Assembly (NCBI GenBank): GCA_045645625.1
Contig: JAZRJD010000049.1
Location: 13,890-77,889 of the forward strand
Reading direction: 5' to 3'
DNA from: Alistipes sp.
GTDB lineage: Bacteria > Bacteroidota > Bacteroidia > Bacteroidales > Rikenellaceae
Length of the DNA stretch: 64,000 nucleotides
The position numbers and the translations under genes were made by a program. How positions within the stretch are numbered: position 1 is the stretch's first letter; the number at the start of each line of letters is the position of its first letter. The notes under the pieces were generated by a model. It was given only the letters and a program-made list of their open reading frames with translations. It was not told where the DNA came from and ran no database searches. Shown piece by piece: positions 3,494 through 62,697 of the stretch.

Positions 3494-4804
3494 TTAGAAG
3501 AATATCAGCGCCATCAGAATATATGTTGGCAGCAGAACTATCAGCGAGAATTTGAAGATATACCCGAAGAACGATGGCATTCGCACACCCTCATTCTCGG
3601 CTACCGCCTTTACCATAAAGTTCGGACCATTGCCGATATAGGTCATCGCACCAAACAACACCGAGCCGAGGGCGATGGCTGTAAGCATCTTTTCGGGCAC
3701 TCCCGCCACAAGTGTTGCACCCTCCGCCATCGGTAGACCTGACGCCACGGTGTGGAATGCCACCGCCGTAGGGGCATTGTCGAGGAACGAACTGAGTGCT
3801 CCCGATGCGAAGAAGAACTGCGAAGGCTCGCTAATGCCGAGCGATGCCGCATTCTCGTTCAAATAGAGCAGCGCAGGTGTCATCGTCACGAAAATTCCGA
3901 TAAAAAGTATCGCCACCTCGGTAATAGGCTCCCACGAGAAGTGGTTTTCGCGGCGAACACGCTTGCGAGTCGATACAATCGAGAGCAACAAAATTACCAC
4001 CAGCACTATCTCGCGCAAAAATCGCATATACCACGGTGCATCTTCGGCCGTCATAGCGGGAATTTTACCGGGGTTAATAAATGCCACCGCGAGGAGTATT
4101 GCCGAGAGGTAGAAGAGGTTTGCTGCACCCGCAAATTGAATCTTTATTGGCTCATCGGTCTCACTCTCGGAGCGTGGGCGTACGCCCATAAGTTCTCTCT
4201 TACGCCAAATATAGGTATCGAGCATAATATATATAGTCAGCAATACCGAGCCCACAAATGCCCACTGTGGGAAGAGCGTTTGAAACCACGAGAACTCTGC
4301 ACCACGCAGATAGAGCAGGAACAACGGCGGATCGCCCAGCGGAGTCAAGACTCCACCACAGTTTGCTACCATGGCGATAAAGAAGAGTACGGTATGCACC
4401 TTATACTCGCGGTCGCGGTTGATTTCGAGTAGAGGGCGTATAAGCAACATCGCAGCACCCGTAGTTCCGACTACCGAAGCCAAACCGTAGCCTATAAACA
4501 TAATCACCGCATTGACGATAGGTGTCGGGGTGGTGGAGTAGTTGATGCGAATACCTCCCGTAACCACATACAACGCTGCCAGCAGGGCGATAAACGGTAT
4601 GTAGTCGTAGAGCATCTGATGTTTCAAATTCTCGCCCAAGCCCGCACGCGACAACATAATGGCGGTAGGCACCGAAATAACCAATACGAAGATAAGTTTA
4701 TTGATATTTTTGCCCCAGAAACGAGGCGCAATAAGCGGCATAATTGCTATCGAGAGCAACATTACCACAAAGGGTATCAAAAGATATGGCTCTATATTAT
4801 ACAT
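3494..4804 (-). CDS. Na+/H+ antiporter-like transporter (ArsB/NhaD superfamily)
   Basis: Multi-TM; GGVLTPLGDPPL, LSSFLDNAPT and GAMTYIGNGPNFMVK motifs. Confidence 0.8.
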   Translation of the reverse strand: MYNIEPYLLIPFVVMLLSIAIMPLIAPRFWGKNINKLIFVLVISVPTAIMLSRAGLGENLKHQMLYDYIPFIALLAALYVVTGGIRINYSTTPTPIVNAVIMFIGYGLASVVGTTGAAMLLIRPLLEINRDREYKVHTVLFFIAMVANCGGVLTPLGDPPLFLLYLRGAEFSWFQTLFPQWAFVGSVLLTIYIMLDTYIWRKRELMGVRPRSESETDEPIKIQFAGAANLFYLSAILLAVAFINPGKIPAMTAEDAPWYMRFLREIVLVVILLLSIVSTRKRVRRENHFSWEPITEVAILFIGIFVTMTPALLYLNENAASLGISEPSQFFFASGALSSFLDNAPTAVAFHTVASGLPMAEGATLVAGVPEKMLTAIALGSVLFGAMTYIGNGPNFMVKAVAENEGVRMPSFFGYIFKFSLIVLLPTYILMALIFF

Positions 4805-4869
4805 TTCTCTAAAAAACTGAAATTAACACCGTTCAACATCGCTCGCGGTGTCGCCCAAATTTTCAGAGG

Positions 4870-5637
4870 TTATACCGCAGAGCACTCAATGCCGAGGGCT
4901 CGTACCCGTTCGGCTATCTTTTCCAACTCCTCGCGTTCGACTTTTTGCAGGGTTTTGCAAGGGGTGGCGCGATCTATCGAGTAGACCATAACGCCGCGCG
5001 GTCGTAGATGCTCCACAATCGCCAACCAAGCCAGCACTTCACTCTCGGTGGTGTTGTCTATCTGCTCTCCGTTGTACTCGCCACGCAGAAACATCGTCTG
5101 CAAAACAAACTCTTTGCCAAATTCGGCAAGATTGTTCACCACGCGCTCCACCGAGTAGTCGCCTTGTGGTTTATTGATAAGTTGTGCGGTCTTGTCGAAT
5201 GCCGAGTCGAGTTTTAAGATAGGGTTATCCACCTTGCGCAGTGCACGGCAAACACCTTCACGGTGCAGTTGTGTGGCGTTGCTCAATACTGAAACCTTCG
5301 CCTGCGGTGCAAATTCATTGCGCAGAGCGATAGTGTCATCGATAATGCCCTCAAACTCGGGGTGAATAGTCGGCTCGCCATTGCCCGCAAAGGTTATAAC
5401 ATCGGGCAGTGCGCCCTCGCCTTGCATCTTTTTGAGTGTTTCGCGCAACGCCTCGCGGACATCTTCGCGCGAGTTGAAGCGAGGTCGTTCGGTGCGATTA
5501 TCCTCGTTCCAGCCGCACTCGCAATATATACAGTCAAAGTTGCATAACTTCGAGTGAAGTGGCAACAGATTCACGCCGAGCGAGATGCCCAAACGGCGTG
5601 AACGCACAGGACCATATATAATATCGGTGAATAGCAC
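4870..5637 (-). CDS. Radical SAM protein (probable GTG start)
   Basis: CNFDCIYC CX3CX2C motif, GPV.SRRLG.SLGVN N-terminus, GNGEPT; no in-frame ATG near the start, GTG at 5637. Confidence 0.85.
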   Translation of the reverse strand: MLFTDIIYGPVRSRRLGISLGVNLLPLHSKLCNFDCIYCECGWNEDNRTERPRFNSREDVREALRETLKKMQGEGALPDVITFAGNGEPTIHPEFEGIIDDTIALRNEFAPQAKVSVLSNATQLHREGVCRALRKVDNPILKLDSAFDKTAQLINKPQGDYSVERVVNNLAEFGKEFVLQTMFLRGEYNGEQIDNTTESEVLAWLAIVEHLRPRGVMVYSIDRATPCKTLQKVEREELEKIAERVRALGIECSAV

Positions 5638-5747
5638 TGTTTTTGATTTTTTGCGTAGCAAAAATAATAAAAAAAATTAAGAATTAAGAATTGTTTTTTC
5701 AATTACTCACAATTACTCACTGCTCGCTACTCACTAATTAAACTTTT

Positions 5748-5817
5748 CGCGCACCCTATAACCCTTATGACCCCTATAACCTCTATTGAGATTGCGCCGT
5801 GATAAGGGTCGGAGTTC
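5748..5817 (-). repeat. Composite ATAGGGG intergenic repeat copy
   Basis: Reverse complement reads gaactccga...ggcgcaa...ataggggtcataagggttatagggtgcgcg, followed by heptamer repeats. Confidence 0.65.
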
Positions 5818-5851
5818 AAAGAAACTAAAAAGTTAATGCTAAAAGCCCAAT

Positions 5852-5887
5852 AAAAAACGCACAAAGCGTTGGCGCCTTGTGCGTTTT
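5852..5887 (-). terminator. Intrinsic terminator after the Omp28 gene
   Basis: aaaacgcacaa...ttgtgcgtttt hairpin with A/T tails. Confidence 0.7.
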
Positions 5888-5932
5888 GGGTTTGCAATAG
5901 CGTTTTAGACTATTGTTTAGTTATCTTATCTT

Positions 5933-7150
5933 TTACTCAGTATACTCGAAGTCCAGCACTCCGTTAATAGGAGCAGAGATAACATTGTTCACATACCAAC
6001 TACCTTTCTCCTCGGTCGAGATAAATACAACTACGCGGAGATTGTTGTGATTCCAAACGCTCTCGCCACCCTTCTCTCCATGTGGCAACAATGGCAAAGC
6101 AAACGATTTAGCCTTAGTTTCGCCCTTCTGTATATTACCGAGGTAGAGACCTGTGTAGTCATTGCTTGCACGGCGGCTGTTAGCAACGCGTACACAGTTG
6201 TTGTGAGTATTGAAATCAACACCCTCCGACTTGATGCCATTGTTGCTCTGTGTAGCCTCTATGCCGTCCTCTACCAACCAAGCACCGATGCGGAACTCGG
6301 CAGTGCTCTTTGCCTTGACATTGGCAGTTACCATAACATAACCATCTTCTGGCTTGTACTCGCAATTTACTGCGATACCACCCTTAACAGCCACGCGCTC
6401 GGTAGCGTGATTAACCAACTTCTGCACATAGGCATAGAATGGCTCCTGCTTTTTGAGGTCACCAGTATAAGATGTGGTACGCTTCATATCGGCAATAATA
6501 TGTGGATATGAGCGAACGCCCATTGCATCTGCAAGCGATGGAGCCTTGTACAAATATGCAGGGTCACCAGTGTTGTAGAGGTGTGCAGCAGTGAGAACAA
6601 CCTCATCGCGGAGAGGATTGCTCTCCTTCATCAACGAGTAGAGCGCATTCATCATATAAGGACAGTTTGGACAACCTGTACCCGTAAACTGTGTAAGGAG
6701 AACGCGGCGCTTGAAGTTGGTCTTCGACTCGTTGTTATCTGTCGGAATCGCTGGTGCTGGTGGTGGAGTCTTCAATACCGAGATACGAATCTCATTCGAT
6801 GCCATTGTTCCGTAACCTGCTCTAAACGAGAAGGTCTTGTTGGTCTCGGTCGAAGAGAATGTGATCTCGGTGCCGTTGATGTTCAATAGGCTCGAAACAT
6901 CCTTATTGTTCTGATTCATAAAGACAACCTTCTCCATATCGGTAACCACTGCACCATTGTATGTGAGTGTAAAGGTTGCGATACCATTCGGATCTACATT
7001 ACCCTCCTTGTCTACGCCGTTGTTGTCGTAGATGTCGTAGTTGTCAGCCGAGAGTACCAAGCCCGTCTCGACTCCTCCCTCCTTCGGCTCACAGCCTGTA
7101 AAGAGCAGTGCGCCAAGGCAGAAGATTGCTAATGTTTTGAGTGTTTTCAT
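5933..7150 (-). CDS. Omp28-related outer-membrane lipoprotein (thioredoxin-like CxxC)
   Basis: Lipobox LLFTGC; RRVLLTQFTGTGCPNCP; LVEDGI...Q...HNNCVR; C-terminal LRVVVFI...YVNNV. Confidence 0.85.
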   Translation of the reverse strand: MKTLKTLAIFCLGALLFTGCEPKEGGVETGLVLSADNYDIYDNNGVDKEGNVDPNGIATFTLTYNGAVVTDMEKVVFMNQNNKDVSSLLNINGTEITFSSTETNKTFSFRAGYGTMASNEIRISVLKTPPPAPAIPTDNNESKTNFKRRVLLTQFTGTGCPNCPYMMNALYSLMKESNPLRDEVVLTAAHLYNTGDPAYLYKAPSLADAMGVRSYPHIIADMKRTTSYTGDLKKQEPFYAYVQKLVNHATERVAVKGGIAVNCEYKPEDGYVMVTANVKAKSTAEFRIGAWLVEDGIEATQSNNGIKSEGVDFNTHNNCVRVANSRRASNDYTGLYLGNIQKGETKAKSFALPLLPHGEKGGESVWNHNNLRVVVFISTEEKGSWYVNNVISAPINGVLDFEYTE

Positions 7151-7184
7151 AATTTATCTGTTTTTTGTTTATTAGTAAATTCTC

Positions 7185-8822
7185 TTAGAACGAAGATGTC
7201 AGCATAAGGTTTACACCCGTGTATGCAGGCGAGTAGCGACAAACGCCTCCCGAGCAGATATATCCTGCGCGGTTGCGACCATAACTCAACTGCACGCGAG
7301 TACGGTTGTGCGTATAACTGAAACCTCCATTGTAGTAGTGAGTCTTGCTCTGCCCGATATTGTACATATCCTGCACATAGAAACTCCAACTTGGTGCAAG
7401 GTTGAATTCTACGAGTGCTGCCACCCAGTCTCCCTCGCTGTGTATGCCGTCCCATTCGCTCTTGTCGTCACCCGAGAGAAGATACTGCGCCTCGAAGCGC
7501 AACGACATCTTACGATTGAACTTGTGCTGTACATCGGCAACAAAGATATGCGCCTGATGGTCAAGGTTATCCTGATAGGAGTAGAGCACGAGTGTCTTCC
7601 ACTTCTTGTTCCACTGACGCTCGACATCGACATTTATATCGCGCCAATAGAGTGGACGGGTATTCTCTGCCATAGGGTCCTTGTCGAGTGAGTAGAAGGT
7701 CGAGAAGTTGGCATGGAAATTCCAGTAGCGGTAGCGATTGCTCTTGCTACGATAAGAGTAGCACAAATCGACCTGACCGCCCAACTCGCCATTGACACTC
7801 ACCTGATAAGGGTTTAAGTTTGCCAACATATAGGTATATTGACGAGTCAATGCAGGAAGATAGTTTATGGTATTTGCCGTACCTGTCGAGTAGATATCTA
7901 TCGGCGTAGCCATATTCTTCAATGCACGGAAGGTACCCATAAAACTGAATGTCTTGTAGTTGTAACCAACCTCGCCGAGCGCAGCCCAGCCCTTTGCAAC
8001 CTTTGTCTCACCGGGGTGGGTAAGGTCCTTACCCTTGTGCACATACTCTCCACGCACGGTCAAGCCGTTCCAACCGAAGTTCAAACGACCGGAGTACATG
8101 TTGAGGTTTGGCGAGATGCCTGTCGACTGCAAGAAGGTGTAGTACTCGCCCTCCAATCCCGGCTTTGGTGCCGAGTAGTCGGGCTCCTTCATATACTCGG
8201 GTGCCTGCGACAGACTCTGAAAACGATTGACATACGAGCCTTCGATATTGAAGGTTATAGCCGAAGCCTTCATCATATCTGCCAACGAGAGCGAGAGGTC
8301 GAGACCACGCACCCAAGTCTTCGAGTACTCGGTGTAGAGTCGCGGACGACCGTACATGCCCTTCAATGTTACATAGCGACCAAAGTTGTAGGCTGCACGC
8401 ACACCCTCCAACGAGTTGTTAAGTCCGAGTTGTCTATCCTCAAACGAACGGAAAATCAAGCCATTTCCGAACTGGTCGTAGATGTCGCCGACCAAAATCT
8501 CGAAGTTCTTGTCGCGCCACTGTATATACTTCGATGCGAGGTAGAACTTGTAGCCGTCAGCCAACTCCTCATATCCCACCAATGCAGGCAGATAGGCATT
8601 CATCTGCACACCTGCCGAGAATCGACCATTTGCATAATCGACCTTGATGTAGTTGTTCGAGCCGAAGGCATCTTCGGGACGCGAGGTCTTCTTGTCGGGG
8701 GTGTAGTAGATCGAAGAGGACTCCAAACTACCCGATACCTGACCATTGCCAAGCACCTTCTGTGCCGAAGCCGAGAGCGCAAGTGCAACAACACCTACAA
8801 ATAAGAGAGTTAATCGTTTCAT
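7185..8822 (-). CDS. DUF6029-family outer-membrane beta-barrel protein
   Basis: Signal peptide; YDQFGNGLIFRSFEDRQLG motif; amphipathic strands; C-terminal YICSGGVCRY and terminal Phe. Confidence 0.8.
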   Translation of the reverse strand: MKRLTLLFVGVVALALSASAQKVLGNGQVSGSLESSSIYYTPDKKTSRPEDAFGSNNYIKVDYANGRFSAGVQMNAYLPALVGYEELADGYKFYLASKYIQWRDKNFEILVGDIYDQFGNGLIFRSFEDRQLGLNNSLEGVRAAYNFGRYVTLKGMYGRPRLYTEYSKTWVRGLDLSLSLADMMKASAITFNIEGSYVNRFQSLSQAPEYMKEPDYSAPKPGLEGEYYTFLQSTGISPNLNMYSGRLNFGWNGLTVRGEYVHKGKDLTHPGETKVAKGWAALGEVGYNYKTFSFMGTFRALKNMATPIDIYSTGTANTINYLPALTRQYTYMLANLNPYQVSVNGELGGQVDLCYSYRSKSNRYRYWNFHANFSTFYSLDKDPMAENTRPLYWRDINVDVERQWNKKWKTLVLYSYQDNLDHQAHIFVADVQHKFNRKMSLRFEAQYLLSGDDKSEWDGIHSEGDWVAALVEFNLAPSWSFYVQDMYNIGQSKTHYYNGGFSYTHNRTRVQLSYGRNRAGYICSGGVCRYSPAYTGVNLMLTSSF

Positions 8823-8825
8823 CGG

Positions 8826-9326
8826 TTATTTCTTCTTTTTCTGTCCCTTTTTCAACTCGACAATTTTGTCGAACAGCAACTGCTCACTACCCGGAGTGTA
8901 ACCCGAGTGCGAGAAGATGATATTGCCCTCACCATCAACCACAAACGACTGCGGTGTGAGCGATACATTCATAGCGCGTTTGAGGTCCTGATTCTCGTCA
9001 TACACGCATATAAACTCCCAACCACGCGATGATGCAATAGCCTTTGCCGAAGCCTTCAAACGGGCATCGTCAACCGATACGGCAACCACTTCGAGGTCTG
9101 CCTCTTCGCGCCACTCTGCCAAGGCATCGTTTATGGCGTTCAACTCCTGAATGCATGGCTTGCAGGCAATAGACCAGTACGAAATAATCATAGGCTTGCC
9201 ATTCGAGAGTGAGCGCACCGATACGATTTTACCCTGTGCATTCTCGACATTTACATCGGGAAGTTGCTGCGCCGAAACTGCCGAAACCACCAAAATAGAG
9301 CATAAAAGGCTCAAAAGTTTTTTCAT
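8826..9326 (-). CDS. TlpA-family periplasmic thiol:disulfide oxidoreductase
   Basis: Signal peptide; WSIACKPC..EL; AVSVDD; TPQSFVVD.EG. Confidence 0.9.
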   Translation of the reverse strand: MKKLLSLLCSILVVSAVSAQQLPDVNVENAQGKIVSVRSLSNGKPMIISYWSIACKPCIQELNAINDALAEWREEADLEVVAVSVDDARLKASAKAIASSRGWEFICVYDENQDLKRAMNVSLTPQSFVVDGEGNIIFSHSGYTPGSEQLLFDKIVELKKGQKKKK

Positions 9327-9386
9327 AAATTTCTTGTTATTAGGGCGTTAGCCCCAAGTTTTGTAATTATTCCATAAAACCGCAAC

Positions 9387-9416
9387 CAAGGAGCCTCCTA
9401 CTCGGAAGGCTCCTTG
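9387..9416 (-). terminator. Hairpin after the large lipoprotein gene (terminator or mRNA stabiliser)
   Basis: caaggagcct-cctactcgga-aggctccttg stem with a weak U-tail. Confidence 0.55.
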
Positions 9417-9436
9417 TGTGCGAGAGTGAGATTATA

Positions 9437-12400
9437 CTACTTGCGCGACTTTGGAGAAAGCCAGTAGCCCTCAGTGTTGAACTTACGGACATTGTTCTTA
9501 ATCTCCTCGGTGCTGAGAATCTTGTAGGTCTGCTTCTCAACCTTGCCGCACTCCATCTTGCTTGTGAATGGAGTAATCGAGAGTTTGCCGATAGGAGCAG
9601 TGTAGTCTGCACTGTTGATGATGCTCTTACCCTTTGTGCTGTTGAGTTTGCGCAAAGCACTGGTCGAAACCTCAGGCTTCTCCGGTGCAGGCTCTGTCCA
9701 GCCCTTGGTCAAAACAACCTCCGATACTACATAAGTGTCGTGGAATGCAGGACCTGTCAGGTAGTCGTACATCACATTTGGCCAACCAGTACACTCAACC
9801 TCTGTCTTTTCACCGGTCTCCTCGTTTGTGGCGGTATACTTCATGGTTGTCGATTGGAGAGTGATAGTGATAGCACCATCTACGCTCTCAACCTTAACTG
9901 GGATACCAACCTCTTCGCAACTCAACTTATCGCTTCCGATGTAGTAAGCGTAGCCATGCTCGAAGTTACCCGATACGAGGTAGTGGTTTGCTGCCTGATA
10001 CCAGCGTGTGAGAGGTGGCACCTGTTCATAGTTTACAGGGATAAAGATATCGCCATTCTCGTTGGTCTGCAAGAACCACTTTGGACCGAAGTCGTTGAAG
10101 AGGTAACTTGTCTGTGCAGCACCATACTTGTCGTGAACGAAGAGATCCCAAGGGGTAGTAAGAACTAAGTTTTCACTGTCGTCTACAGCCCAACCCTGGC
10201 AGAGAACACGATTCTGCAACTTGTTGGTCTCGTTGAATGTCTTCTCAATCTCCTTGAACTCAGTCCACTGCTTGTCAGCGTCTTCTCTCGAAACCTTCAA
10301 ACTTTCGAGCAATGTGTAATCTTCTTCTGTAAGGTTAGCCTTCGATGTCAAGTCACCAATCGTAACCTTCCAACTGTGCTCCTTCTCGGTATAGAATGGC
10401 TGACCATTATCTTCTGTTGCATTCCAGTTCCAAGTACGAACTGTTGCCGAAGCAGTCCAGTCGCCTTTCAACGAATTCAAGAGAGTCATATCTGCCTCAG
10501 GAGCAGCAGGTGCAGGCAATGTTCTCGCGGTTGCAACGGCCTGTGAACCCTCTGCATCAGGATCGCTTGGACGATTCTCGATGTTCCAACCCATAACTGC
10601 CAATGTGAACTCTTGGTTGTCGCGGAGGTAGTCAATTTCGAGGTCGTAACCCTTCTTCGAGTTTACCTTGTCGAGGTTTGCGCCAATAATCTCGGCATAA
10701 CCCAAGTTCGCCTCTACGATATCGGCGTATGAGCTGGTGCTACCCATATAAGACTCGAACTCACGAGTGTAGTTCGCTGCGTATGCAAGACGCTCTACCT
10801 TGTTGCTCTTGTAGTTAGGGTTCTTGATGTTGAACTTAACGGTGTGTGGGTCATAACTATCGTAAGCAGTTACAATCAACTCAGGAGCATCTTTCGAGTA
10901 GTCAGGAATACGGAAAGCCTGACGCATAAAGTTCTGCTTGGTAAGGTCTGGGTAGGCGTTACCCTCGCTATCAATTGCACTTGGTACCGCAGTTACGACA
11001 ACTTGGTATCTCATACCTGCATAGAGGTAGTAGTTCTCTGCGAGGTCAATCTCCGATACAACAACCTTTCCATCGGCAGAGTCGTTGTAGAGATACTGGA
11101 ATCCGAACTGCATACCAATCTCCGATGTGGAGAACCACTGCCAGAGGTCGTAGTTGTTGTCAAGGAACAATCGGGTAATCGAAGAATATGTGCTACCTTC
11201 CTCACCCTGAATAGGGAATACTCCAACGCAGTAAGCATATACATTTTTGCTTGGGGTAAATCTCAAAGTACCCGAAGATGGCGAGAGATTCTTGGTAGTG
11301 ATCTTAACTGTTCCATCGAACTTCTCAGGCTGTTTTGCAGTAACTTGTACGGTTTTGTGCCAATAAGGTTTGCCATCTTTATCCTCCGTCATCCAGTATG
11401 CATTCTCGTCAACCTCTGTGCCACCGCCAAGAATAGGGAAACGAGGGGTTACAGATAACGGACCTGGATCAGATTCAGTGTCAATGATATACTGCATATA
11501 GTTGTACGGATACCAATACCAACCTGGACCCCACGAGAAATCAATTGTAGCGTGATTCTTATCACAAGTTGCAATTTTGTGACCTGCATTTGCGCCCGTC
11601 TCATTGTCTCCGAGGGTACAGTTTGCATAGCCACACTCGGTGAACATAAACAACATTGGCTCACCCGGCGCCATCAAGAAGTGATAGGTCGTAGCCTCTG
11701 CTGTGCCTGCCTCTACCATTGGATCGTTCTTGTGGCACTCCTTCATTATGGCAGTTCCATCCTCGTTATAGCCCTCGAAATAGGTGTACATAATTTCACC
11801 CGGATACTTCTCGCTCCAACGGTATGCGCTATTGTGGCATACATTGATAAGGGTGTCACCCGAAATCAGATAGCCTGGATAAACATTCTCGTTGGTGTGC
11901 ATGAAATCAATATCTATACCACCATAAGCCCACTTGCTATACTTGTGGAAGGCTGTATTGGTAACGCCCCACTTAACCTTGTGACCGCGCTCCTTGATGT
12001 ACTCAGGGAACATAAAGTCGATCTGCGCACCCTCGTATGTCGAGCCGAGCACCATCATGTCAAGTGGCTGCTCAGGAGTTGCGTTGTAGTACTCTGTCGG
12101 AGTCTCGAACTTATAACGGAAGATAGGATCGATATCCTCGTTGAGGTAGGACATATTCGACACAGCAACAACAAAGCAGAAGCGATACTTCTTGCCGAGA
12201 CGGAGACCATTGTCACCCGAGGTGAGTGTGATGTTGTCTGTATTGCCCGAAATTGCAGTACCATTCCAACGAATCTCTGTCAGTATAGGCTCTTCGTCTT
12301 CGTTCTCCGCGGTAATTTCCTCTACAATGTAGTAGATCTTCGGAATGTTCTCCGAAACTACCGGAAGGGTAGCCGAAATAGCAGGGGTAGTCAAACCATC

Positions 12401-12538
12401 TCCTGCACTTACAGTAAGTTCTCCCGCAATCTCAAACTTGGGAGGACCCATCGTTACATCGGGAGTACACGATGTTGTCATGCCGCTGATCCATGCAAAA
12501 AGACCGCAGATGACGAGTGTTTTGAATAATTGTTTCAT
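9437..12538 (-). CDS. Large (1033 aa) uncharacterised surface lipoprotein
   Basis: Lipobox-like TTSC at about residue 24; beta-rich, aromatic/acidic composition; no recognisable enzyme motif. Confidence 0.75.
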   Translation of the reverse strand: MKQLFKTLVICGLFAWISGMTTSCTPDVTMGPPKFEIAGELTVSAGDGLTTPAISATLPVVSENIPKIYYIVEEITAENEDEEPILTEIRWNGTAISGNTDNITLTSGDNGLRLGKKYRFCFVVAVSNMSYLNEDIDPIFRYKFETPTEYYNATPEQPLDMMVLGSTYEGAQIDFMFPEYIKERGHKVKWGVTNTAFHKYSKWAYGGIDIDFMHTNENVYPGYLISGDTLINVCHNSAYRWSEKYPGEIMYTYFEGYNEDGTAIMKECHKNDPMVEAGTAEATTYHFLMAPGEPMLFMFTECGYANCTLGDNETGANAGHKIATCDKNHATIDFSWGPGWYWYPYNYMQYIIDTESDPGPLSVTPRFPILGGGTEVDENAYWMTEDKDGKPYWHKTVQVTAKQPEKFDGTVKITTKNLSPSSGTLRFTPSKNVYAYCVGVFPIQGEEGSTYSSITRLFLDNNYDLWQWFSTSEIGMQFGFQYLYNDSADGKVVVSEIDLAENYYLYAGMRYQVVVTAVPSAIDSEGNAYPDLTKQNFMRQAFRIPDYSKDAPELIVTAYDSYDPHTVKFNIKNPNYKSNKVERLAYAANYTREFESYMGSTSSYADIVEANLGYAEIIGANLDKVNSKKGYDLEIDYLRDNQEFTLAVMGWNIENRPSDPDAEGSQAVATARTLPAPAAPEADMTLLNSLKGDWTASATVRTWNWNATEDNGQPFYTEKEHSWKVTIGDLTSKANLTEEDYTLLESLKVSREDADKQWTEFKEIEKTFNETNKLQNRVLCQGWAVDDSENLVLTTPWDLFVHDKYGAAQTSYLFNDFGPKWFLQTNENGDIFIPVNYEQVPPLTRWYQAANHYLVSGNFEHGYAYYIGSDKLSCEEVGIPVKVESVDGAITITLQSTTMKYTATNEETGEKTEVECTGWPNVMYDYLTGPAFHDTYVVSEVVLTKGWTEPAPEKPEVSTSALRKLNSTKGKSIINSADYTAPIGKLSITPFTSKMECGKVEKQTYKILSTEEIKNNVRKFNTEGYWLSPKSRK

Positions 12539-12713
12539 AAAAATTTTTATTTAGTGAATTGAAATAAAATTATCTATCGGGGCGCAAGATACGAATAATT
12601 TTTTAGAAATTTTATGAATTGCATAACTTTTTTTGATTTTGCCCTGTTAATACGCATACACGCGCGAATAATCACATATTGTTAAACGAATAAATATGCC
12701 TATTTTGCTACAT

Positions 12714-12752
12714 AAAAAACCTGCCGAGCAGCAATCTGTTCGGCAGTGTTTT
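12714..12752 (-). terminator. Probable terminator downstream of the dsbD operon
   Basis: aaaaaacctgccgagcag...ctgttcggcagtgtttt hairpin. Confidence 0.6.
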
Positions 12753-12837
12753 TATGGTTATCTATTAATTTCGAGCGTTGTTGCGGCGCAACCTTTCTGG
12801 GAGTTACCGGGGGTGGGCTACCTGCTTTTTCACTCCT

Positions 12838-12926
12838 TCCGAACCCCCACCGTGGTCAAGGCGCAACCCTGATAGGGGTTGTAGGGGCGGGCTTTCAGCC
12901 CTTAATAGGGGTTGTAGGGTGCGCGG
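12838..12926 (+). repeat. Composite ATAGGGG intergenic repeat copy
   Basis: 12882-12926 matches 56975-57019 at 43/45 nt; both preceded by cgtggtcRaggcgca. Confidence 0.8.
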
Positions 12927-12973
12927 GAGCAAATTAAGAATTAAGAATTATTTTTTAATTCATAGTTCTCCGC

Positions 12974-13164
12974 TCTCAGTTAATCCTGCTCCGCAGTCTT
13001 TTCTTCCTCGCGGCTCGGCATAGTGCAAACAAGTTTGCCCTCTGCTCTCGCTCCGCATCGTCAGTTCTCAGTTCTCAGTTAATCCTGCTTCGCAGTCTTT
13101 TCTTCCTCGCGGCTCGGCATAGTGTGCAAGCACCCTCTGCCCTCGCTCCGCAGCGTCAGTTCTC
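12974..13164. repeat. Tandem pair of ~92-96 bp structured repeat units embedded in agttctc heptamers
   Basis: 12974-13069 and 13073-13164 share tcagttaatcctgctYcgcagtcttttcttcctcgcggctcggcatagtg...ccctctgcYctcgctccgca.cgtcagttctc. Confidence 0.85.
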
Positions 13165-13174
13165 CGCTTTTTGT

Positions 13175-13217
13175 CCCCCCCCTGTTTTAGGGAGACGAGC
13201 GAAGCGGAGGGGGGTAA
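13175..13217 (-). repeat. REP-like GC-rich double-hairpin repeat
   Basis: ccccctgttttagggagacgagcgaagcggagggggta; similar to 39763-39799. Confidence 0.55.
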
Positions 13218-13233
13218 TTCTCTCGTCTCTCGT

Positions 13234-15180
13234 CTATTTTTTGTACTCCTCTACGCCTTTACGCAGGAACTCGACAAATCCCTCTACCGAGAGGTCATAG
13301 CCGCGTGGCTCGCCCAAAATCGCCCCATTCTTGCCCTGCAAAACATAGTATGGTTGTGCATTTACGCCAAAGCGAGTGAGGGCGTAGTTAGCATTTGCCT
13401 TGCCGAGAGTTTTCAGCACCTTGCCACTCTCGGTGGTTACCCAGTCGCTCTCCGGCAACGGCATCTTATCATCGGTGTAGAGTGCCACAACGACATATTC
13501 ATCGCGCAAAATCTGCTGTACGGTAGGGTCTGCCCAAACTCGTGCCTCCATCTCGCGACAGTTCACGCAACCGTGTCCCGTAAAATCGATAAATATCGGT
13601 TTTCCAACCTTTGCTGCATACGCCTCTGCCTCCTTCATATCGAAGAAGCCCTTTAAGCCGTGCGGAAGGTGGAGGAAATCGCTATATTTCGCACTGTTTA
13701 CATCGACCTCGCCCTTGGTTGCTGTGGCAGGTGCAGAGCCCTGTCCTACAACGAAATCCTGAGTTGAGAGTGGTGGCAGGTAGCCTGACAATGCCTTCAA
13801 AGGTGCACCCCACATGCCCGGAATCATATAGACTACGAATGTGAATACGCCGATAGCCAATGCCAAGCGACCTACGCCGATATGCTTAACCTCGCTGTCG
13901 TGCGCAAACTTTATCTTGCCCAAGAGGTACAAGCCGAGCAGCGAGAATGTCACAATCCAAATTGCAAGATATACCTCGCGGTCGAGCAGGTTCCAGTGAT
14001 ATACTTGGTCGGCAACGCTGAGGAACTTGAATCCGAGTGCCACCTCGACAAATCCGAGAACAACCTTTACCGAGTTGAGCCAACCGCCGCTCTTTGGTAA
14101 CTTCTGCAACAACGAAGGGAAGAATGCAAAGAGGGTAAACGGCAGTGCAAAGGCGGTCGAGAATGCCAACATCGTGATAATTGGCGACCACACCTCGCCC
14201 GAGGTCGATTTGATAAGCACCGAGCCTACGATAGGGCCTGTGCAGGAGAACGACACCAGCACGAGTGTCAATGCCATAAAGAAGATGCCTCCGATACCGC
14301 CCTTATCCGACTTGGCATCGCTCTTGTTTACGAGTGCGCTCGGCATTGTAATCTCGAATGCGCCGAAGAACGAGGCTGCAAATATCATAAATACAATGAA
14401 GAATAAGATATTTGGCAACCAGTGTGTCGCAAGCCAGTTGAAGATGTCGGCTGTTACGGCATCACCACCCACTACGCGCGTAATAATAATAAGTATAGCG
14501 ATAGGGAGTGTGTAGAGTGCAACGATAAACAAGCCATACAACGAGGCATTGATACGACCACGCGCTGCCGAGCCGCTATTCTTCATAAAGAACGATACTG
14601 TCATCGGTACCATAGGGAATACGCATGGGGTGAGCAGTGCTGCAAATCCCCACAATATAGCCTCGATAATGAGCGACCACAACGAGCCACTACCTGCGGC
14701 ATCTTTTACCTCCTTAACCTCTGCCTGCGGAGCCGTTGCGCCCTTGCCGAGCGTTACAACAACCTCCTCATCGGTCGGTGGGGTGCAGTTGGTGTCGTTG
14801 CACGCCATATACTCGATTGTGACCTTTACATCGCCCTCGCCCTCGAAATCCTGCTCGAAGAGAGCCTCTTTCTCGAAGTAGCCAATCTCAATGCCGAAGA
14901 TATCGTCCATCTGGCGCACCGCCTTCGATACTACGCGCATATCGCCAACAGCCTTAACGCCCTCGCTTGGCTCGAACTTCAACGAAGTGGCGGTGATAAA
15001 CTCGTAAGGTCCGAGGTCGTAGATATGCCAACCATCGGCCATCTGCGCCTTCATCTGCACGGTGTAACTGTCGTTGCCGTTGTCGGTTACTGAGTGTTTC
15101 CACTTTACCTCTCCTTGCGCCAATACCGTCATCGGTACTACGCACAAGAGTAGCAATAAAAAGTTTCGTAGAATTTTCAT
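13234..15180 (-). CDS. dsbD: Thiol:disulfide interchange protein DsbD
   Basis: N-domain YMACNDTNC; TM domain LTPCVFPMVP and FSCTGP; C-terminal thioredoxin GHGCVNCREME. Confidence 0.92.
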   Translation of the reverse strand: MKILRNFLLLLLCVVPMTVLAQGEVKWKHSVTDNGNDSYTVQMKAQMADGWHIYDLGPYEFITATSLKFEPSEGVKAVGDMRVVSKAVRQMDDIFGIEIGYFEKEALFEQDFEGEGDVKVTIEYMACNDTNCTPPTDEEVVVTLGKGATAPQAEVKEVKDAAGSGSLWSLIIEAILWGFAALLTPCVFPMVPMTVSFFMKNSGSAARGRINASLYGLFIVALYTLPIAILIIITRVVGGDAVTADIFNWLATHWLPNILFFIVFMIFAASFFGAFEITMPSALVNKSDAKSDKGGIGGIFFMALTLVLVSFSCTGPIVGSVLIKSTSGEVWSPIITMLAFSTAFALPFTLFAFFPSLLQKLPKSGGWLNSVKVVLGFVEVALGFKFLSVADQVYHWNLLDREVYLAIWIVTFSLLGLYLLGKIKFAHDSEVKHIGVGRLALAIGVFTFVVYMIPGMWGAPLKALSGYLPPLSTQDFVVGQGSAPATATKGEVDVNSAKYSDFLHLPHGLKGFFDMKEAEAYAAKVGKPIFIDFTGHGCVNCREMEARVWADPTVQQILRDEYVVVALYTDDKMPLPESDWVTTESGKVLKTLGKANANYALTRFGVNAQPYYVLQGKNGAILGEPRGYDLSVEGFVEFLRKGVEEYKK

Positions 15181-17303: not shown

Positions 17304-18800
17304 CTATTCGTAAGGCTCTACATAAATCGTAAATACCAGCGGCGTATACGGCAAAATCTCCGTACTTATAGTTGTCGTTGTCGTGGAATCCTCTGCGCTG
17401 TAATCGTAGTTATAGTTGTAGTAATTGTAGTCGTAGTAGTTGTAGTACGGACTATAATAGTTGTAGTACGAATTGTAGTAGTTGTAGTAGTTCAGCGCGT
17501 TGTAGTAGTTTGCCGAACTTGAAGAGGTCTCGGTCGTGGTTGTTCCCGAAAGACCTGCTGCTCCGTAGGCATATCCCGATGTGGTGACAATTCTGCCGAA
17601 TGCTCCGTGGTGCATCTTCGGAATGCAGTAGTACCACGCTCCGATAGCCTGACGCTCACTATCCGCCTTGTCCTTGTCGTCCGAAGGGCTGTAACTGAAT
17701 ACCTCGCAAATAGGGTCGCTCTCGCCAAATACCAACTTGCGTATCTCGGCGATGTTGGTATCCACTACAAAGCCATCGAGGAAGCGTACTACATACCACA
17801 CATTGGCGCGCCCGTTGTCGCCGACCAAGGTGCCGTACTTGTCATCTTTGATATGCTCCTCGGTGATAGTCTCTCCCTCGCCAAAGCGTTCGAGCAGTAT
17901 TCGGTTAATCTCCATATTTATCTTCGACATATCGACATACTTCTTGGTGTCGGTATATGGGTTGCTCGTACCCTCGATATGTGGTTGCATGTACTTGTAG
18001 TCGTAGACATTGTCGCTCTGTGGGTTGTAGTCGAAGGTGTAGTACAGACCTTTGAGTTTCAAGTCGTCATCGGCATCCTCTTTCTCCTCTTCGGTCTTCT
18101 CTGCCTGTGTCCAGTTGCCGCCCTTTACATACTCCGACACCATCTCTAACTCCTTGTCCGAAGGGTTTTTGATGGCACCCAATACCTCGATATCTAATAC
18201 TAACGGTCGCGATGCATCGAGCGCGTACTGTCCCTCGTAACCACCCTCAGTCGATGAGCCACTCTCGCCGTATGCTATCCACGATGGGAGATATAGTCGC
18301 ACCTTCGAGCCACGGCGCATCTTGTGGGTTGTGTCGCCAATCTTCAAAGCATTGCGCATTGCGAGGTATGTGCCCTCCAAGAGCCCCATGTTCACATTAC
18401 CGCAGTAGTTGATGTACGGCACATAGTGGGTGAAGTAGGAGAATGTACCGCACATATCTGCCAACGAACCGCTTCGAGTCATGCATATCGAGCCGTTTAT
18501 GTCGCGACCTGTCATCTGGGTAAATACCCAGCAGGTATCCTGCTCCATCAGAGGCTCCGAGCCAAAGTCGTTTTCGGTGGCAGCAATGCCCTCATCGCCC
18601 TCGGCGAGAATCTCGACATAGTAGCCGCCCTCCTCTTGGTAGTTGTTTACGAGTTCGGGTTTGTGAAGTCGTATCCACGCATCGAGCGAGACCTTTTCGC
18701 GCTCTTTATTCGATACCGACTCCTCCGTTATACACGACACTAATGCGATAGCCGCAAAGAGTATCGCAATAGTGGTTTTTATATTTTTCCAAAAAATCAT
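17304..18800 (-). CDS. Lipoprotein with two FKBP-like domains and a Tyr/Asn low-complexity insert
   Basis: Lipobox LVSC; KVRLYLPSWIAYG...PLVLDIEV and AYG..G...ILPYTPLVFTIYVE FKBP C-terminal motifs. Confidence 0.7.
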   Translation of the reverse strand: MIFWKNIKTTIAILFAAIALVSCITEESVSNKEREKVSLDAWIRLHKPELVNNYQEEGGYYVEILAEGDEGIAATENDFGSEPLMEQDTCWVFTQMTGRDINGSICMTRSGSLADMCGTFSYFTHYVPYINYCGNVNMGLLEGTYLAMRNALKIGDTTHKMRRGSKVRLYLPSWIAYGESGSSTEGGYEGQYALDASRPLVLDIEVLGAIKNPSDKELEMVSEYVKGGNWTQAEKTEEEKEDADDDLKLKGLYYTFDYNPQSDNVYDYKYMQPHIEGTSNPYTDTKKYVDMSKINMEINRILLERFGEGETITEEHIKDDKYGTLVGDNGRANVWYVVRFLDGFVVDTNIAEIRKLVFGESDPICEVFSYSPSDDKDKADSERQAIGAWYYCIPKMHHGAFGRIVTTSGYAYGAAGLSGTTTTETSSSSANYYNALNYYNYYNSYYNYYSPYYNYYDYNYYNYNYDYSAEDSTTTTTISTEILPYTPLVFTIYVEPYE

Positions 18801-18805
18801 ATACT

Positions 18806-19393
18806 TTACTTTGTCACTTTTTCAATCTTCATATACCATGCAATCATCGACTCCTTCGGTATAACGCCCATAATCTCATCGCCGTATGCGAGGTTTGAGG
18901 TCAAATATACCTGCACCGAGTCGGTCTCGTGGCAACCGGGCAGGGAACTCTCTATACCCTTCAATATCTTTGTTGTGCCGAGTTTAATATCCAATGGCTC
19001 ACTCGACCATGCAAGTGTGTTGCCGCTTGTCTTGCCAAGTCTCTCGATAATCTCCGGAATGTTCGAGAGATATATCGCCGAGGTCGATGGCTCCGAGCCG
19101 GTGAAGATGTAGGCGTTGAATCGTATTTGCAGATTGTCACCCCACTCCACAAGAGGTTTATCCTCGCGACCATCATCGTAGTAGTTTACGATGTGACGAT
19201 AGGCGTAACGCCCTATGACGGAGAAGAATGCAGGTTCCTCCTCGATGGTGTTATTCAACTCCTCCTCTGCCACCATACGGCGCGATGAAGTGAGATATTT
19301 CTCGATTTTATCACGCTCGGTAAGCAGGGTATCCTCTTGCTTGCAACCCACCAACAAAGGGAGCAAAAATAGTATGGTTAAAAACTTCTTCAT
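18806..19393 (-). CDS. FKBP-type peptidyl-prolyl isomerase-like lipoprotein
   Basis: Lipobox LLVGC; LG...ILKGIE..L.G, SNLAYG...G.IP; alternative start at 19399. Confidence 0.75.
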   Translation of the reverse strand: MKKFLTILFLLPLLVGCKQEDTLLTERDKIEKYLTSSRRMVAEEELNNTIEEEPAFFSVIGRYAYRHIVNYYDDGREDKPLVEWGDNLQIRFNAYIFTGSEPSTSAIYLSNIPEIIERLGKTSGNTLAWSSEPLDIKLGTTKILKGIESSLPGCHETDSVQVYLTSNLAYGDEIMGVIPKESMIAWYMKIEKVTK

Positions 19394-19407
19394 GGTCATA
19401 AAACGGA

Positions 19408-20054: not shown

Positions 20055-20175
20055 AGTCCTGTATATATTATTCGTGCGCAAAAATAGTAAAAAGTAGGAA
20101 AATATCGAAATTTCGCGGCATCAATGTTGCGAATTACACTAAAAAAGCCTAATTTTGTGGCGGAGAATGTAGATT

Positions 20176-20439
20176 ATGAGTACGATACTTACAGTGGTAA
20201 TTATTGCCGTTTGCGCAGTGGCGTTTTTTGTATTGGCGATGTCGCTGACACTGGTTTTCAAGGGGCATCATATTGACTCTGAAATATCGACAAACAAGAA
20301 TATGCAGAAACTCGGCATTAAGTGTGCCGTGCAGGAGACTCGTGAGGATATGGCTGCCGAGAGGTGCGAAACCGACTCGCTGTGTAGCGGTAACTGCGCA
20401 GGGTGTGATATTGAACATTCTAATCAAAATGAGAAATAA
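20176..20439 (+). CDS. Small membrane protein with a Cys-rich C-terminus
   Basis: N-terminal TM helix, then KC...RC....LCSGNCAGC; upstream TAATTTTG box at about 20150. Confidence 0.65.
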   Translation: MSTILTVVIIAVCAVAFFVLAMSLTLVFKGHHIDSEISTNKNMQKLGIKCAVQETREDMAAERCETDSLCSGNCAGCDIEHSNQNEK

Positions 20440-58073: not shown

Positions 58074-58129
58074 CGCGAAATAGGGAAAATAGTGTGCAGT
58101 ATGGCGTGCAGATACGCCGTGTAAGGTTA

Positions 58130-59443
58130 ATGAAAAGATATGCAATTGTTCTAACCCTCTTTCTGCTGCTCCACTCGTTGGCATTGGCGCGGAGTTCCGA
58201 GGTTGAAAATCTCGGTTCTCTCTCTTCGCGTGTGCGCGAATCGAACGAACAGATAAGCCTGAATGTAATCACCAATCTGCAAAACATATCCATTCGCTAC
58301 GAGAATAATAAGGCGTGGCCACGCTGGGATTATGCTAATAATAGTAAAGCGCGTACGGCTCTTGTAGATGCAGTGAAAAAACTCTCCTCCGAGGAGAGTA
58401 ATGTCCGCACAATTGTTATCGAGGGTGCAGCATCGCCCATAGGTAGCGAGGAGTATAACTATCGCCTTGCTATGCGGCGTGCCGAGGAGCTTCGTGGTAT
58501 TATCTCCCGAATGGAGGGTGGCAACAAGTTGAAGATACATGTTATATCGGCAGGAGAGGACTGGCACACATTCCAATCCTATATCGATAGGAATTACCAC
58601 GAACCTAATCGCGAAAAAGTCCTTTCTATTCTCCGTACCGATGCCTCAAACGATAAGAAAGAGCGACAACTCCAAGCTCTCGACAATAGTAGAACTTGGC
58701 GTAAGTTAGTACGGGAGTTTATGGCATCGGCACGAAATGCTGCGGTTATCCATATCGTGGAGATTGCCGACTTGGCACCAAAAGAGCCTCCTCTCAAATT
58801 CCGCCCTATTGTCGCTCCGGTCATAGAATATGAAATTACTAAATCGGAGGAGCCAAAGGATACGGTACGGAAAGAGCAACTCCCAATTCGCAAACCTGTC
58901 GTTGCTCTGCGCTCGAATCTGCTTGTGCCGGCGTTGAATGTGGGTGTTGAGGTGCCTATTGGCACACACTGGTCGGTCGGGGCCGACTACTACTTCCCGT
59001 GGGTGTGGCCTAAGCGCGACAACAAAAACTGTTTCGAGCTGCTGTCGTGGGGCATTGAGGGGCGTTATTGGTTTGGTCGCAACCGCACGGTCTTCGACCG
59101 CCTGCAAGGTCATTCGGTAGGTCTTTATGGCTATATGGGATACTACGACTTCGAGCGCAACTTCCACGGTCATCAGGGCGAGTTTGTAAATGTAGGCTTG
59201 GACTACACCTACGCTATGGCGGTGGGTAAGCGCAAGCAGGTACACTTCGAGTTCTCGCTCGGCGTGGGTTACATCTACTCGCAGGCGAGAAAATATACCG
59301 TCATCGAGGCGGGAGCACCGCTCATTAGCGACAAGATAACCAAGAAGATAGGCTTCTTTGGTCCTACGAAGGCGAATATCTCGCTCGTAGTGCCGATTTT
59401 CCAAAAGGTTAAACCAAACGATAAAAAGCGTGGCGATGAGTAG
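58130..59443 (+). CDS. OmpA-like + DUF3575 outer-membrane protein (first gene of the pilus operon)
   Basis: IEGAASP.G....N.RLA.RRA..L, GEDW (OmpA_C-like); ALRSNLL, NVGVEVP, YDFE....GHQGE, FGPTKA.ISL (DUF3575-like). Confidence 0.85.
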   Translation: MKRYAIVLTLFLLLHSLALARSSEVENLGSLSSRVRESNEQISLNVITNLQNISIRYENNKAWPRWDYANNSKARTALVDAVKKLSSEESNVRTIVIEGAASPIGSEEYNYRLAMRRAEELRGIISRMEGGNKLKIHVISAGEDWHTFQSYIDRNYHEPNREKVLSILRTDASNDKKERQLQALDNSRTWRKLVREFMASARNAAVIHIVEIADLAPKEPPLKFRPIVAPVIEYEITKSEEPKDTVRKEQLPIRKPVVALRSNLLVPALNVGVEVPIGTHWSVGADYYFPWVWPKRDNKNCFELLSWGIEGRYWFGRNRTVFDRLQGHSVGLYGYMGYYDFERNFHGHQGEFVNVGLDYTYAMAVGKRKQVHFEFSLGVGYIYSQARKYTVIEAGAPLISDKITKKIGFFGPTKANISLVVPIFQKVKPNDKKRGDE

Positions 59444-60392: not shown

Positions 60393-60414
60393 ACGAGAGA
60401 CGAAAGACGAGAGT

Positions 60415-60461
60415 GACAGACCCCACCGCCCTAACGGGCACCTCCCCTAGCTTAGGGGAGG
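60415..60461 (+). repeat. REP-like double-hairpin repeat
   Basis: Near-identical to 57070-57117. Confidence 0.85.
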
Positions 60462-60630
60462 CAATAAAACGGAAAACTGAAAAACCAAAAAAAACTAACA
60501 TAAAACCTTAAAAAAACAGAGACAAAAAAAACAGAAACATTAACAAAAACCATTAAACAATTTTTACAAACAACAAATTTTTACTATTTTTAACCAAATT
60601 ATTTATCAAACTTTCAAAAACTTTAATGTT

Positions 60631-61590: not shown

Positions 61591-61604
61591 TCTTTTTTTC
61601 TAAT

Positions 61605-61631
61605 CCGTGGGGTGCTTGACCGCCCCCACGG
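61605..61631 (+). terminator. Hairpin after the major pilin gene
   Basis: ccgtgggg...ccccacgg, no U-tract. Confidence 0.55.
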
Positions 61632-61708
61632 GTACTACGATTTAATTGAGAATTGAGAATTGAGAATTAAATAGTTTTCCGTTTTCCGTTTTCCGTTTAG
61701 AAAAGTTT

Positions 61709-62683: not shown

Positions 62684-62697
62684 CAGAAGGATAGAAG

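Follow-up and report, generated by a model that had tools for sequence, protein, structure and literature searches.

A conserved module of a TlpA-type thioredoxin, a DUF6029 beta-barrel and Omp28-type lipoproteins in Bacteroidota: a candidate thiol-disulfide relay across the outer membrane

The locus and its conservation across the Bacteroidota

The window considered here, that is, the whole 64-kb stretch of Alistipes sp. contig JAZRJD010000049.1 that was analysed, contains between positions 5933 and 15180 five open reading frames (ORFs), all on the minus strand, which were characterised by Pfam and NCBIfam profile searches. In the order of transcription they encode a DsbD-type inner-membrane thiol-disulfide transporter (648 amino acids (aa), 13234–15180), a lipoprotein without known family (1033 aa, 9437–12538), a TlpA/ResA-type periplasmic thioredoxin (166 aa, 8826–9326), a DUF6029 outer-membrane beta-barrel (545 aa, 7185–8822) and an Omp28/HBP35-type lipoprotein (405 aa, 5933–7150). 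The last three, referred to below as TlpA, the barrel and the Omp28-like protein, form the module that is the subject of this study. By ORF coordinates, 3 nucleotides (nt) separate the TlpA and barrel genes, and 34 nt separate the barrel gene from the Omp28-like one. Each of the three proteins carries a cysteine pair: CKPC in TlpA (9153–9164), the hairpin C523-S-G-G-V-C528, or CSGGVC, in the barrel (7239–7256) and CPNC in the Omp28-like lipoprotein (6662–6673), all encoded on the minus strand. A preliminary description of this DNA had listed five co-oriented genes with these gaps and motifs, and the coordinates and translations confirm all of this. All NCBIfam scores of the five proteins are below the cut-offs, thus none of them obtains a family-level name from this source.

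Gene linkage was analysed in one genome per species, which yielded at least 600 loci. The best 80, with 81 plus-strand barrel genes, were kept; they come from the Bacteroidales, Flavobacteriales, Chitinophagales and Sphingobacteriales, and from one bin labelled Chlorobiota. ORFs in these loci were called by a script and labelled by phmmer and one round of profile search seeded with the window proteins. TlpA is the directly upstream, co-oriented gene at 67 of the 81 barrels, with a median gap of 26 nt (range −32 to 167 nt); two of the 81 barrels are situated at a contig edge. An Omp28-like gene is directly downstream and co-oriented in 44 cases and lies at most two genes from the barrel in 73, and both TlpA and an Omp28-like gene are present in 62. 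One TlpA and one barrel go with one to four surface paralogues. The Omp28 label was checked on 65 of the 133 ORFs carrying it: 60 match PF11551 at E ≤ 0.001, of which 58 also exceed the gathering score, and the other five are one Calx-beta protein, one double thioredoxin, one protein with Invasin_D3 only and two proteins without any match. The CxxC motif is kept in 71 of 72 TlpA ORFs and in 130 of 133 Omp28-like ORFs, and the cysteine pair of the barrel in 81 of 82 DUF6029 ORFs, the lone exception being cut by a contig end.

This arrangement is far beyond chance. The core consists of three genes, for TlpA, the DUF6029 barrel and one or more Omp28-type CxxC lipoproteins, and is conserved across the Bacteroidota. 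The preliminary description had assumed a set of five genes with synteny extending to DsbD; the linkage to TlpA and Omp28-like genes holds across the phylum, but that to DsbD does not. The 1033-aa lipoprotein is also outside the core. It has no match in Pfam or NCBIfam, its relatives in the protein atlas are only "hypothetical protein" clusters of the Bacteroidota, and relatives are present in 11 of the 80 loci. It is a lineage-specific accessory of the module.

Some other genes are seen near the module. In the Flavobacteriia and relatives, a protein of about 240–265 aa (typically about 243 aa), with a type IX secretion system (T9SS) sorting domain and without other Pfam domains, stands beside it in 18 loci, one ORF in each (L034, L036, L041–L044, L047, L050, L052, L056, L057, L062, L063, L066, L068, L070, L076, L077; E ≤ 2.3e-20). 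In six Bacteroidales loci (L016, L017, L023, L024, L027, L033) the Omp28-like genes are followed by DUF4988 or BACON lipoproteins of 580–1026 aa, which may be clients or further accessories. SusC/SusD genes flank a few loci. In L016 (Bacteroides xylanisolvens), an ORF of a group II intron reverse transcriptase/maturase (4119–5951) is located just before a SusD fragment, upstream of the module. In Porphyromonas gingivalis W83, the consecutive numbers of PG2173 (Omp28), PG2174 (uncharacterised vesicle protein) and PG2175 (thioredoxin-domain protein) suggest that the founding Omp28 gene belongs to the same triad, with PG2174 as a putative DUF6029 protein; the passages of PMC3946380 that mention PG2175 say only that its array probe was excluded. 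The tlpB gene of Flavobacterium psychrophilum, whose link to the module is conjectural, is called thiol oxidoreductase-like, with a confirmed role in virulence, in the available part of PMC8400371.

The barrel, its cysteine hairpin and the predicted TlpA plug

The barrel protein matches DUF6029 (PF19494) over its entire length, residues 1–545 being aligned to positions 1–538 of the 538-position profile, with 552.1 bits at a cut-off of 27. Its nearest relatives carry the names Alistipes or Rikenellaceae. The AlphaFold2 model, built on a 101-row alignment, has a predicted local distance difference test score (pLDDT) of 92.2 and a predicted template modelling score (pTM) of 0.88, and features 24 long strands with short turns alternating with long loops. 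The C-terminus reads ...GYICSGGVCRYSPAYTGVNLMLTSSF in the ORF translation. In the model, the cysteine pair flanks a G-G turn at the tip of the hairpin E520-524/E527-531, which extends the last two barrel strands; this agrees with the preliminary description, which had placed the C-x4-C in the last loop before the terminal Phe strand. The hairpin is expected at the outer rim, on the extracellular side, since by the usual rule, applied here to the modelled secondary structure, the two termini and the short turns are periplasmic. A Foldseek comparison with the PDB yields only generic large barrels. The best template modelling (TM) scores, 0.47/0.54, are those of the ushers FimD and PapC, which are 24-stranded, followed by TonB-dependent transporters and LptD.

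When 1.84 billion representatives were searched in full with HMMER, 980 relatives of the barrel were obtained at E ≤ 0.001; the best 150, representing clusters at 50% identity, were examined. The C-x-G-G-x-C motif is present within the last 45 residues of 130 of them, and one more has CANGIC, so that the pair is found in 131 of 150; the remaining 19 are fragments or have unrelated C-termini. Where the C-terminus is recognisable by a preceding Y-G-R-like motif, the pair is always present (123/123). No other cysteine at all occurs in 58 of the 130 C-x-G-G-x-C barrels. The alignment of 101 diverse members, 27–58% identical to the query, has nine invariant columns, among them C523, G526 and C528, and G525, R529 and P532 are conserved in at least 90% of the sequences. 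Hence the pair that had been pointed out in the window protein is invariant in the family. We define the C-terminal motif preceding the last strand as G-R-x-R-x-G-x-x-C-x-G-G-[VI]-C-R-x-x-P; the window barrel has it. The other peaks of conservation correspond to the long loops L3 (Y115, Q117, G119, G121, R125) and L7 (N320, P323).

The TlpA protein scores above the Pfam cut-offs for AhpC-TSA (64.9 bits) and Redoxin (56.8 bits). The cut-offs of the NCBIfam equivalogs are not reached: the scores are 48.6 for TlpA (cut-off 230), 59.9 for ResA (170) and 40.7 for DsbE (123). By these profile scores, the protein is a member of the TlpA/ResA/CcmG-type family and an orthologue of no named enzyme. Its N-terminal signal peptide, as read from the sequence, is cleavable and ends in ...VSAQ. 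The 66 barrel-linked TlpA ORFs listed all encode a cleavable signal peptide followed by a mature domain of about 140 aa. Across 51 barrel-linked homologues, ten positions never vary: C55, C58, E61, D86, D87, W103, D110, N112, P125 and G146.

The complex of the mature barrel and mature TlpA was predicted in three runs, with separate own alignments of the two proteins, along with three controls. The median complex score is 0.81 (0.83, 0.81 and 0.81), that of the best control being 0.01. The prediction features 151–172 contacts, at least 91% of which are shared between the runs, and the pLDDT of the partner is at least 83. In a benchmark, the same mark was attained by 116 solved complexes out of 157 and by 2 mismatched pairs out of 215, which is only a rough guide here, as own alignments were used. 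LptD-LptE is a solved plug-and-barrel complex from which the predictor may have learned; both proteins considered here are unrelated to it.

On the barrel, most strands contribute contacts through alternating residues that face the lumen (28/30/32/34, 58–66, 284–297, 352–358, 432–442, 502–509), and further contacts are made by the short periplasmic turns, L3 (115–130), L7 (321–330), residues 524–525 of the hairpin and the C-terminal residues 542–544. Because the contacts involve alternating strand residues, short turns and inner loops, TlpA is predicted to be enclosed by the barrel, plugging its lumen after entry from the periplasmic side. The TlpA contacts include residues 53–56 of the CxxC stretch, where C55 is the first active-site cysteine, 87–90 and 117–123; in the model they make up the face around the active site, which meets L3 of the barrel. 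The interface residues of the barrel are more conserved than the rest (entropy 2.04 versus 2.28, permutation p = 0.025). Thus, the binding of TlpA to the barrel suggested by the preliminary description is supported, but the geometry differs, as a plug inside the lumen was modelled rather than transient docking from the periplasm.

Natural fusions provide another line of evidence. When longer relatives of TlpA were sought, two proteins were obtained, and both also have the DUF6029 domain. The 670-aa fusion type is represented by four distinct sequences (P0271, P0273, P0275, P0277), 93–99.7% identical, on five contigs from two sources. In these, the whole TlpA with its own signal peptide is joined straight to the mature barrel, and the barrel lacks its own signal peptide. 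The same 90% cluster also contains unfused barrels of 522 and 528 aa. As the fusion is seen on five contigs, an assembly artefact is unlikely. Hence the 670-aa fusions, on the evidence of their sequences, independently support physical pairing of TlpA at the periplasmic N-terminus of the barrel.

There exists a second fusion type of 543–551 aa, found on many contigs (P0272, P0279, P0286, P0287, P0291). Here TlpA residues 1 to approximately 135 are joined to the barrel from Y115, without the TlpA C-terminus and the first five barrel strands, and the junction lies at similar short sequences of both genes. This may be a deletion allele.

The probable surface lipoproteins and DsbD

The Omp28-like protein of the window matches PF11551 in residues 205–396 (73 bits, cut-off 34.9); the NCBIfam model lipoprot_Omp28 gives 43.6 at a cut-off of 150, which is not sufficient. 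The protein consists of a lipobox with Cys20, an immunoglobulin (Ig)-like N-terminal domain, a thioredoxin-like domain with CPNC and the Omp28 beta-sandwich. The best PDB match of its AlphaFold2 model (pLDDT 88.8) is HBP35 of P. gingivalis (5y1a), with the Foldseek E-value 3.3e-10 and TM-scores 0.46/0.57 over 281 columns; a DUF1223 protein (2axo) and an Omp28 domain (2r2c) come next. The family profile aligns with 5y1a at E 6.4e-20, spanning both domains, including the CxxCP motif. Hence, by profile and fold comparison, the Omp28-like protein is a homologue of HBP35, and Omp28-like proteins, for which the preliminary description knew of no characterised function, do have a characterised relative. 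Seven positions are invariant in 61 aligned Omp28-like neighbours: C20, T156, C160, C163, H190, P216 and N389, with P216 at the expected position of the thioredoxin cis-proline.

The part of PMC2907840 available to us reports that HBP35 is situated on the cell surface and that its reduction of insulin requires both cysteines of the CxxC. It binds hemin by its C-terminal part (M135-P344) in a cysteine-independent manner, and the hbp35 mutant grows poorly upon hemin depletion (same excerpts). In these excerpts the authors saw no role in protection against oxidative stress and name no electron source; they also note that the hemin binding may be unspecific and that hbp35 is not induced by hemin limitation (PMC2907840).

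The window protein has no match to the T9SS sorting domain Por_Secre_tail in Pfam and features the lipobox Cys20 instead. The sorting domain is present in 8 of 65 scanned Omp28-like neighbours, some of which also have adhesin-like N-terminal domains. A lipobox, as defined by our own pattern, is found in 104 of the 133 Omp28-like ORFs, and 59 of these 104 have an acidic stretch, that is, at least two Asp/Glu in the six residues following the lipidated cysteine; the window protein reads C-E-P-K-E-G at this place. The stretch resembles the lipoprotein export signals S(D/E)3 and K-(D/E)2 that excerpts of PMC6222051 describe for the Bacteroidetes. Given the T9SS domains in some members and the export-like stretch in others, the Omp28-like proteins are probably located at the surface, as lipoproteins or as T9SS cargo, as had been supposed for the window protein at the outset.

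The DsbD protein has DsbD_N, DsbD_TM and Thioredoxin_7 domains with scores 34.8, 71.4 and 43.4 bits, each over its cut-off, and scores 131.5 with the NCBIfam DsbD model, under the cut-off of 330. Its translation contains all three cysteine pairs: CNDTNC in the N-terminal domain, two membrane cysteines (TPCVF and FSCTG) and CVNC at the C-terminus. The gene adjoins the module in the window and in the loci L001 and L003, being directly upstream of TlpA in the latter. In the window, a 695-nt spacer (12539–13233) sets it apart from the other four genes. The spacer contains a terminator-like hairpin with a U-run on the minus strand (12721–12746), identified by sequence and RNA folding: the fold has −23 kcal/mol and z −5.39, and none of 200 shuffles is equally stable. 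The U-run lies 3' of the hairpin on the sense strand; the hairpin scan had placed the hairpin on the plus strand. Because of the long spacer with a strong hairpin and U-run, dsbD probably forms its own transcription unit. The DsbD protein is a plausible, though not conserved, electron donor to the module.

The same spacer has direct repeats: 62 nt at 12964–13025 and 13063–13124, 95% identical, 32 nt at 13038–13069 and 13133–13164, and 20 nt at 12867–12886 and 12900–12919. An Rfam search of the region between dsbD and the lipoprotein gene gave no matches at E up to 0.1. The sigma-70 promoter scan is uninformative, with 11 sites at 11.7 expected; promoters of the Bacteroidota are of another type.

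The remainder of the window is occupied by housekeeping genes and a fimbrial cluster and has no further thiol-disulfide genes. The cluster, at 58094–63690 on the plus strand, comprises genes for an OmpA/DUF3575 protein, a DUF5119 protein and three Mfa-like fimbrillins, and looks like a type V pilus locus. A 498-aa FKBP-like protein (17304–18800, minus strand) has a Thr/Ser run and then a long C-terminal low-complexity stretch rich in Tyr and Asn; a second FKBP-like lipoprotein is encoded after it at 18806–19399. At approximately 20100–20300 the GC skew flips from negative to positive and the gene orientation changes from minus to plus, between ruvA and the next gene, so this region may be a replication origin; recF and dciA are located at 1.3–2.7 kb of the window, and gyrB at 54–56 kb.

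A candidate relay, competing readings and known systems

Gene linkage, the invariance of the three cysteine pairs and the homology to HBP35 follow from sequence and comparison. The pairs appear to be placed at successive levels of the envelope: by the models and the sequence features described above, they would be in a plug in the lumen, on an outer hairpin of the barrel and in surface proteins. Since three conserved pairs at successive levels go together with one conduit and many clients, we rank first the reading that the TlpA-DUF6029-Omp28 module is a thiol-disulfide relay across the outer membrane, holding it tentatively and with somewhat less than even confidence. TlpA would be a separate plug in the barrel lumen, comparable to LptE in LptD or to the plugs of TonB-dependent transporters, with its CxxC face pointing up the lumen toward the conserved inner loops and the C-x-G-G-x-C hairpin at the outer rim. 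Residues 524–525 of the hairpin and 53–56 of TlpA both belong to the confident part of the predicted interface. By dithiol/disulfide exchange, the CxxC of TlpA would then pass reducing equivalents to the hairpin pair, which would hand them to the CxxC of the Omp28/HBP35-type proteins at the surface. A single conduit could feed several surface thioredoxins, as DsbD does several periplasmic clients, and the ultimate reducing power would come from the cytoplasm via DsbD. Surface exposure, the direction of electron flow, the input from DsbD and the substrates are what we infer.

Several observations weigh against this proposal. A true DsbD gene adjoins the module in only 2 of the 80 loci (L001 and L003), and within the window the terminator hairpin stands between dsbD and the other genes. 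The predicted complex buries the active-site face of TlpA, and the fusions tether TlpA to the outer membrane; in both cases the proposal does not account for its recharging by DsbD in the inner membrane. For TlpA, the interface showed no significant excess of conservation over the remaining residues (p = 0.27). On the surface side, the cysteine is followed by at most one acidic residue in 45 of the 104 lipoprotein forms. Finally, a fixed, structural cross-strand disulfide would have precisely the form of a tight C-x-G-G-x-C hairpin, and the invariance of the pair fits both readings.

A structural disulfide is also part of the view of the module as a plugged uptake channel, where a surface protein of the HBP35/Omp28 type would capture a ligand, heme being the obvious candidate, the barrel would be the conduit, and TlpA the gate or the periplasmic acceptor. 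The barrel pair would be a structural disulfide, which the modelled hairpin geometry suits, and the CxxC motifs would be used for gating or for handling a ligand or metal, not for relaying electrons. Uptake systems of the Bacteroidota usually pair a barrel with surface lipoproteins, and SusC/SusD flank some of the loci. Next to the CxxC, the Omp28-like family conserves His190 and an HN motif, and in HBP35 hemin binding is independent of the cysteines and the mutant grows poorly at low hemin (excerpts of PMC2907840). However, the doubts about the specificity of this binding and the lack of induction by hemin limitation (same excerpts) apply here. This view does not explain why the surface proteins (130 of 133) and TlpA proteins (71 of 72) keep the CxxC together with an invariant barrel pair, and the 70 flanking proteins scanned from 29 loci include no recurrent TonB box, plug domain, ABC importer or TonB-related gene. 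We regard uptake as unlikely, yet the strongest competitor of the relay. It is less probable still that the 24-stranded barrel is a secretion pore that carries folded thioredoxin-fold domains, TlpA and perhaps the Omp28-like protein, to the surface, similar to an usher or a two-partner or autotransporter system, with the TlpA in the lumen being in transit or at rest. Ushers pass folded subunits of about 15 kDa, and FimD and PapC are the best fold matches; the order of passenger and then barrel in the fusions is that of autotransporters, and the tight pairing of the TlpA and barrel genes recalls two-partner secretion operons. Against this, the 151–172 confident contacts distributed around the lumen and the periplasmic turns are those expected of a stable plug, and the conserved L3 and L7 fill the lumen above TlpA in the model. 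Moreover, Omp28-like paralogues with T9SS sorting domains already own an export route, and a preprint, in the part available (PMC13692018), assigns general export of surface lipoproteins in Bacteroides to an expanded Lpt pathway.

Rated slightly lower again, and thus improbable, is an ordinary neighbourhood in which TlpA is a general periplasmic reductase or a folding factor dedicated to the barrel, the disulfide is purely structural and the Omp28-like genes are merely co-regulated. TlpA-family proteins are indeed numerous and versatile, the window TlpA is below every NCBIfam cut-off and therefore no specific role is assigned to it, and the invariance of the hairpin cysteines is expected of a structural disulfide. 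But direct adjacency at 67 of 81 barrels across the orders of the phylum, the specific complex prediction with null controls, the natural fusions devoid of the barrel signal peptide and the distinct invariant residues of the barrel-linked TlpA subfamily all speak against this. The least probable reading, with hardly any weight, is a polysaccharide export porin related to the Wzi barrel. It stems from the only work that we found to name DUF6029, in which, as far as the available part goes, HHpred alone linked Wzi-barrel-only homologues near OPX genes to DUF6029 and suggested a possible role in polysaccharide secretion (PMC9603273). None of the 70 flanking proteins scanned matches a family of polysaccharide export or synthesis, and no Wzi entry is present among the 50 listed fold matches of the barrel. 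The Wzi barrel has 18 strands versus about 24 in our model. This candidate was rejected on gene context and strand count.

If the relay reading is correct, the module would be the first example of a thiol-disulfide relay that crosses an outer membrane, operating by a thioredoxin-plugged beta-barrel, and the use of an enzyme as the plug would be a new outer-membrane architecture. It would power a whole family of surface thioredoxins, Omp28/HBP35, in the Bacteroidota, including dominant gut and oral species, and explain the electron source of proteins such as HBP35, which is active in vitro. It would also provide a function for the DUF6029 and Omp28 families in at least 600 species genomes, and bear on how anaerobic gut and oral Bacteroidota deal with oxidants or with disulfide-rich host or dietary molecules at their surface. 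We know of no route supplying thiol-based reducing power to proteins outside a diderm outer membrane, and a search of the literature available to us found nothing on a TlpA-DUF6029-Omp28 system.

The components of the module have clear relatives. The window TlpA shares with the TlpA/ResA/CcmG reductases the thioredoxin fold, the active site W-x-x-C-x-P-C, the cis-Pro (P125) and the signal peptide, but differs from them in being a minimal soluble domain (about 146 aa), in having a set of invariant residues of its own and in its predicted position inside a barrel. The Omp28-like protein has the same succession of a thioredoxin-like domain with CxxCP and an Omp28 beta-sandwich as HBP35 (5y1a) and Omp28 (2r2c). 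HBP35, however, is T9SS cargo transcribed alone, whereas the protein of the window is a lipoprotein, has an additional Ig-like domain at its N-terminus and is encoded in an operon with the barrel.

As regards architecture, LptE sits as a plug in the LptD barrel, and both LptD-LptE and the TonB-dependent transporters combine a large barrel of 22–26 strands with a separate or N-terminal globular plug; the order of plug and then barrel in the transporters is also that of the 670-aa fusions. Nevertheless, the module has no homology to either system, the Foldseek TM-scores being only 0.36–0.42, and its plug would be a thioredoxin with an intact CxxC.

As regards chemistry, a parallel is the inner-membrane relay DsbD/CcdA/ScsB, also a cascade of cysteine pairs on thioredoxin-like or hairpin modules that serves several thioredoxin-fold clients. 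DsbD relays reducing equivalents from cytoplasmic thioredoxin across the inner membrane, and the N-terminal domain of the window DsbD has a C-x4-C (CNDTNC), like CSGGVC of the barrel. Unlike the alpha-helical DsbD, which resides in the inner membrane and is fed by cytoplasmic thioredoxin, the membrane part of the module is an outer-membrane beta-barrel with its cysteine pair on a putatively outer hairpin. In function, the electron path across the outer membrane that comes closest is MtrCAB, the porin-cytochrome conduit of Shewanella, in which a periplasmic redox protein is sheathed by a barrel and passes electrons to a surface lipoprotein. MtrCAB relies on electron hopping between hemes, whereas the module, whose three proteins have no CxxCH, would use dithiol/disulfide exchange.

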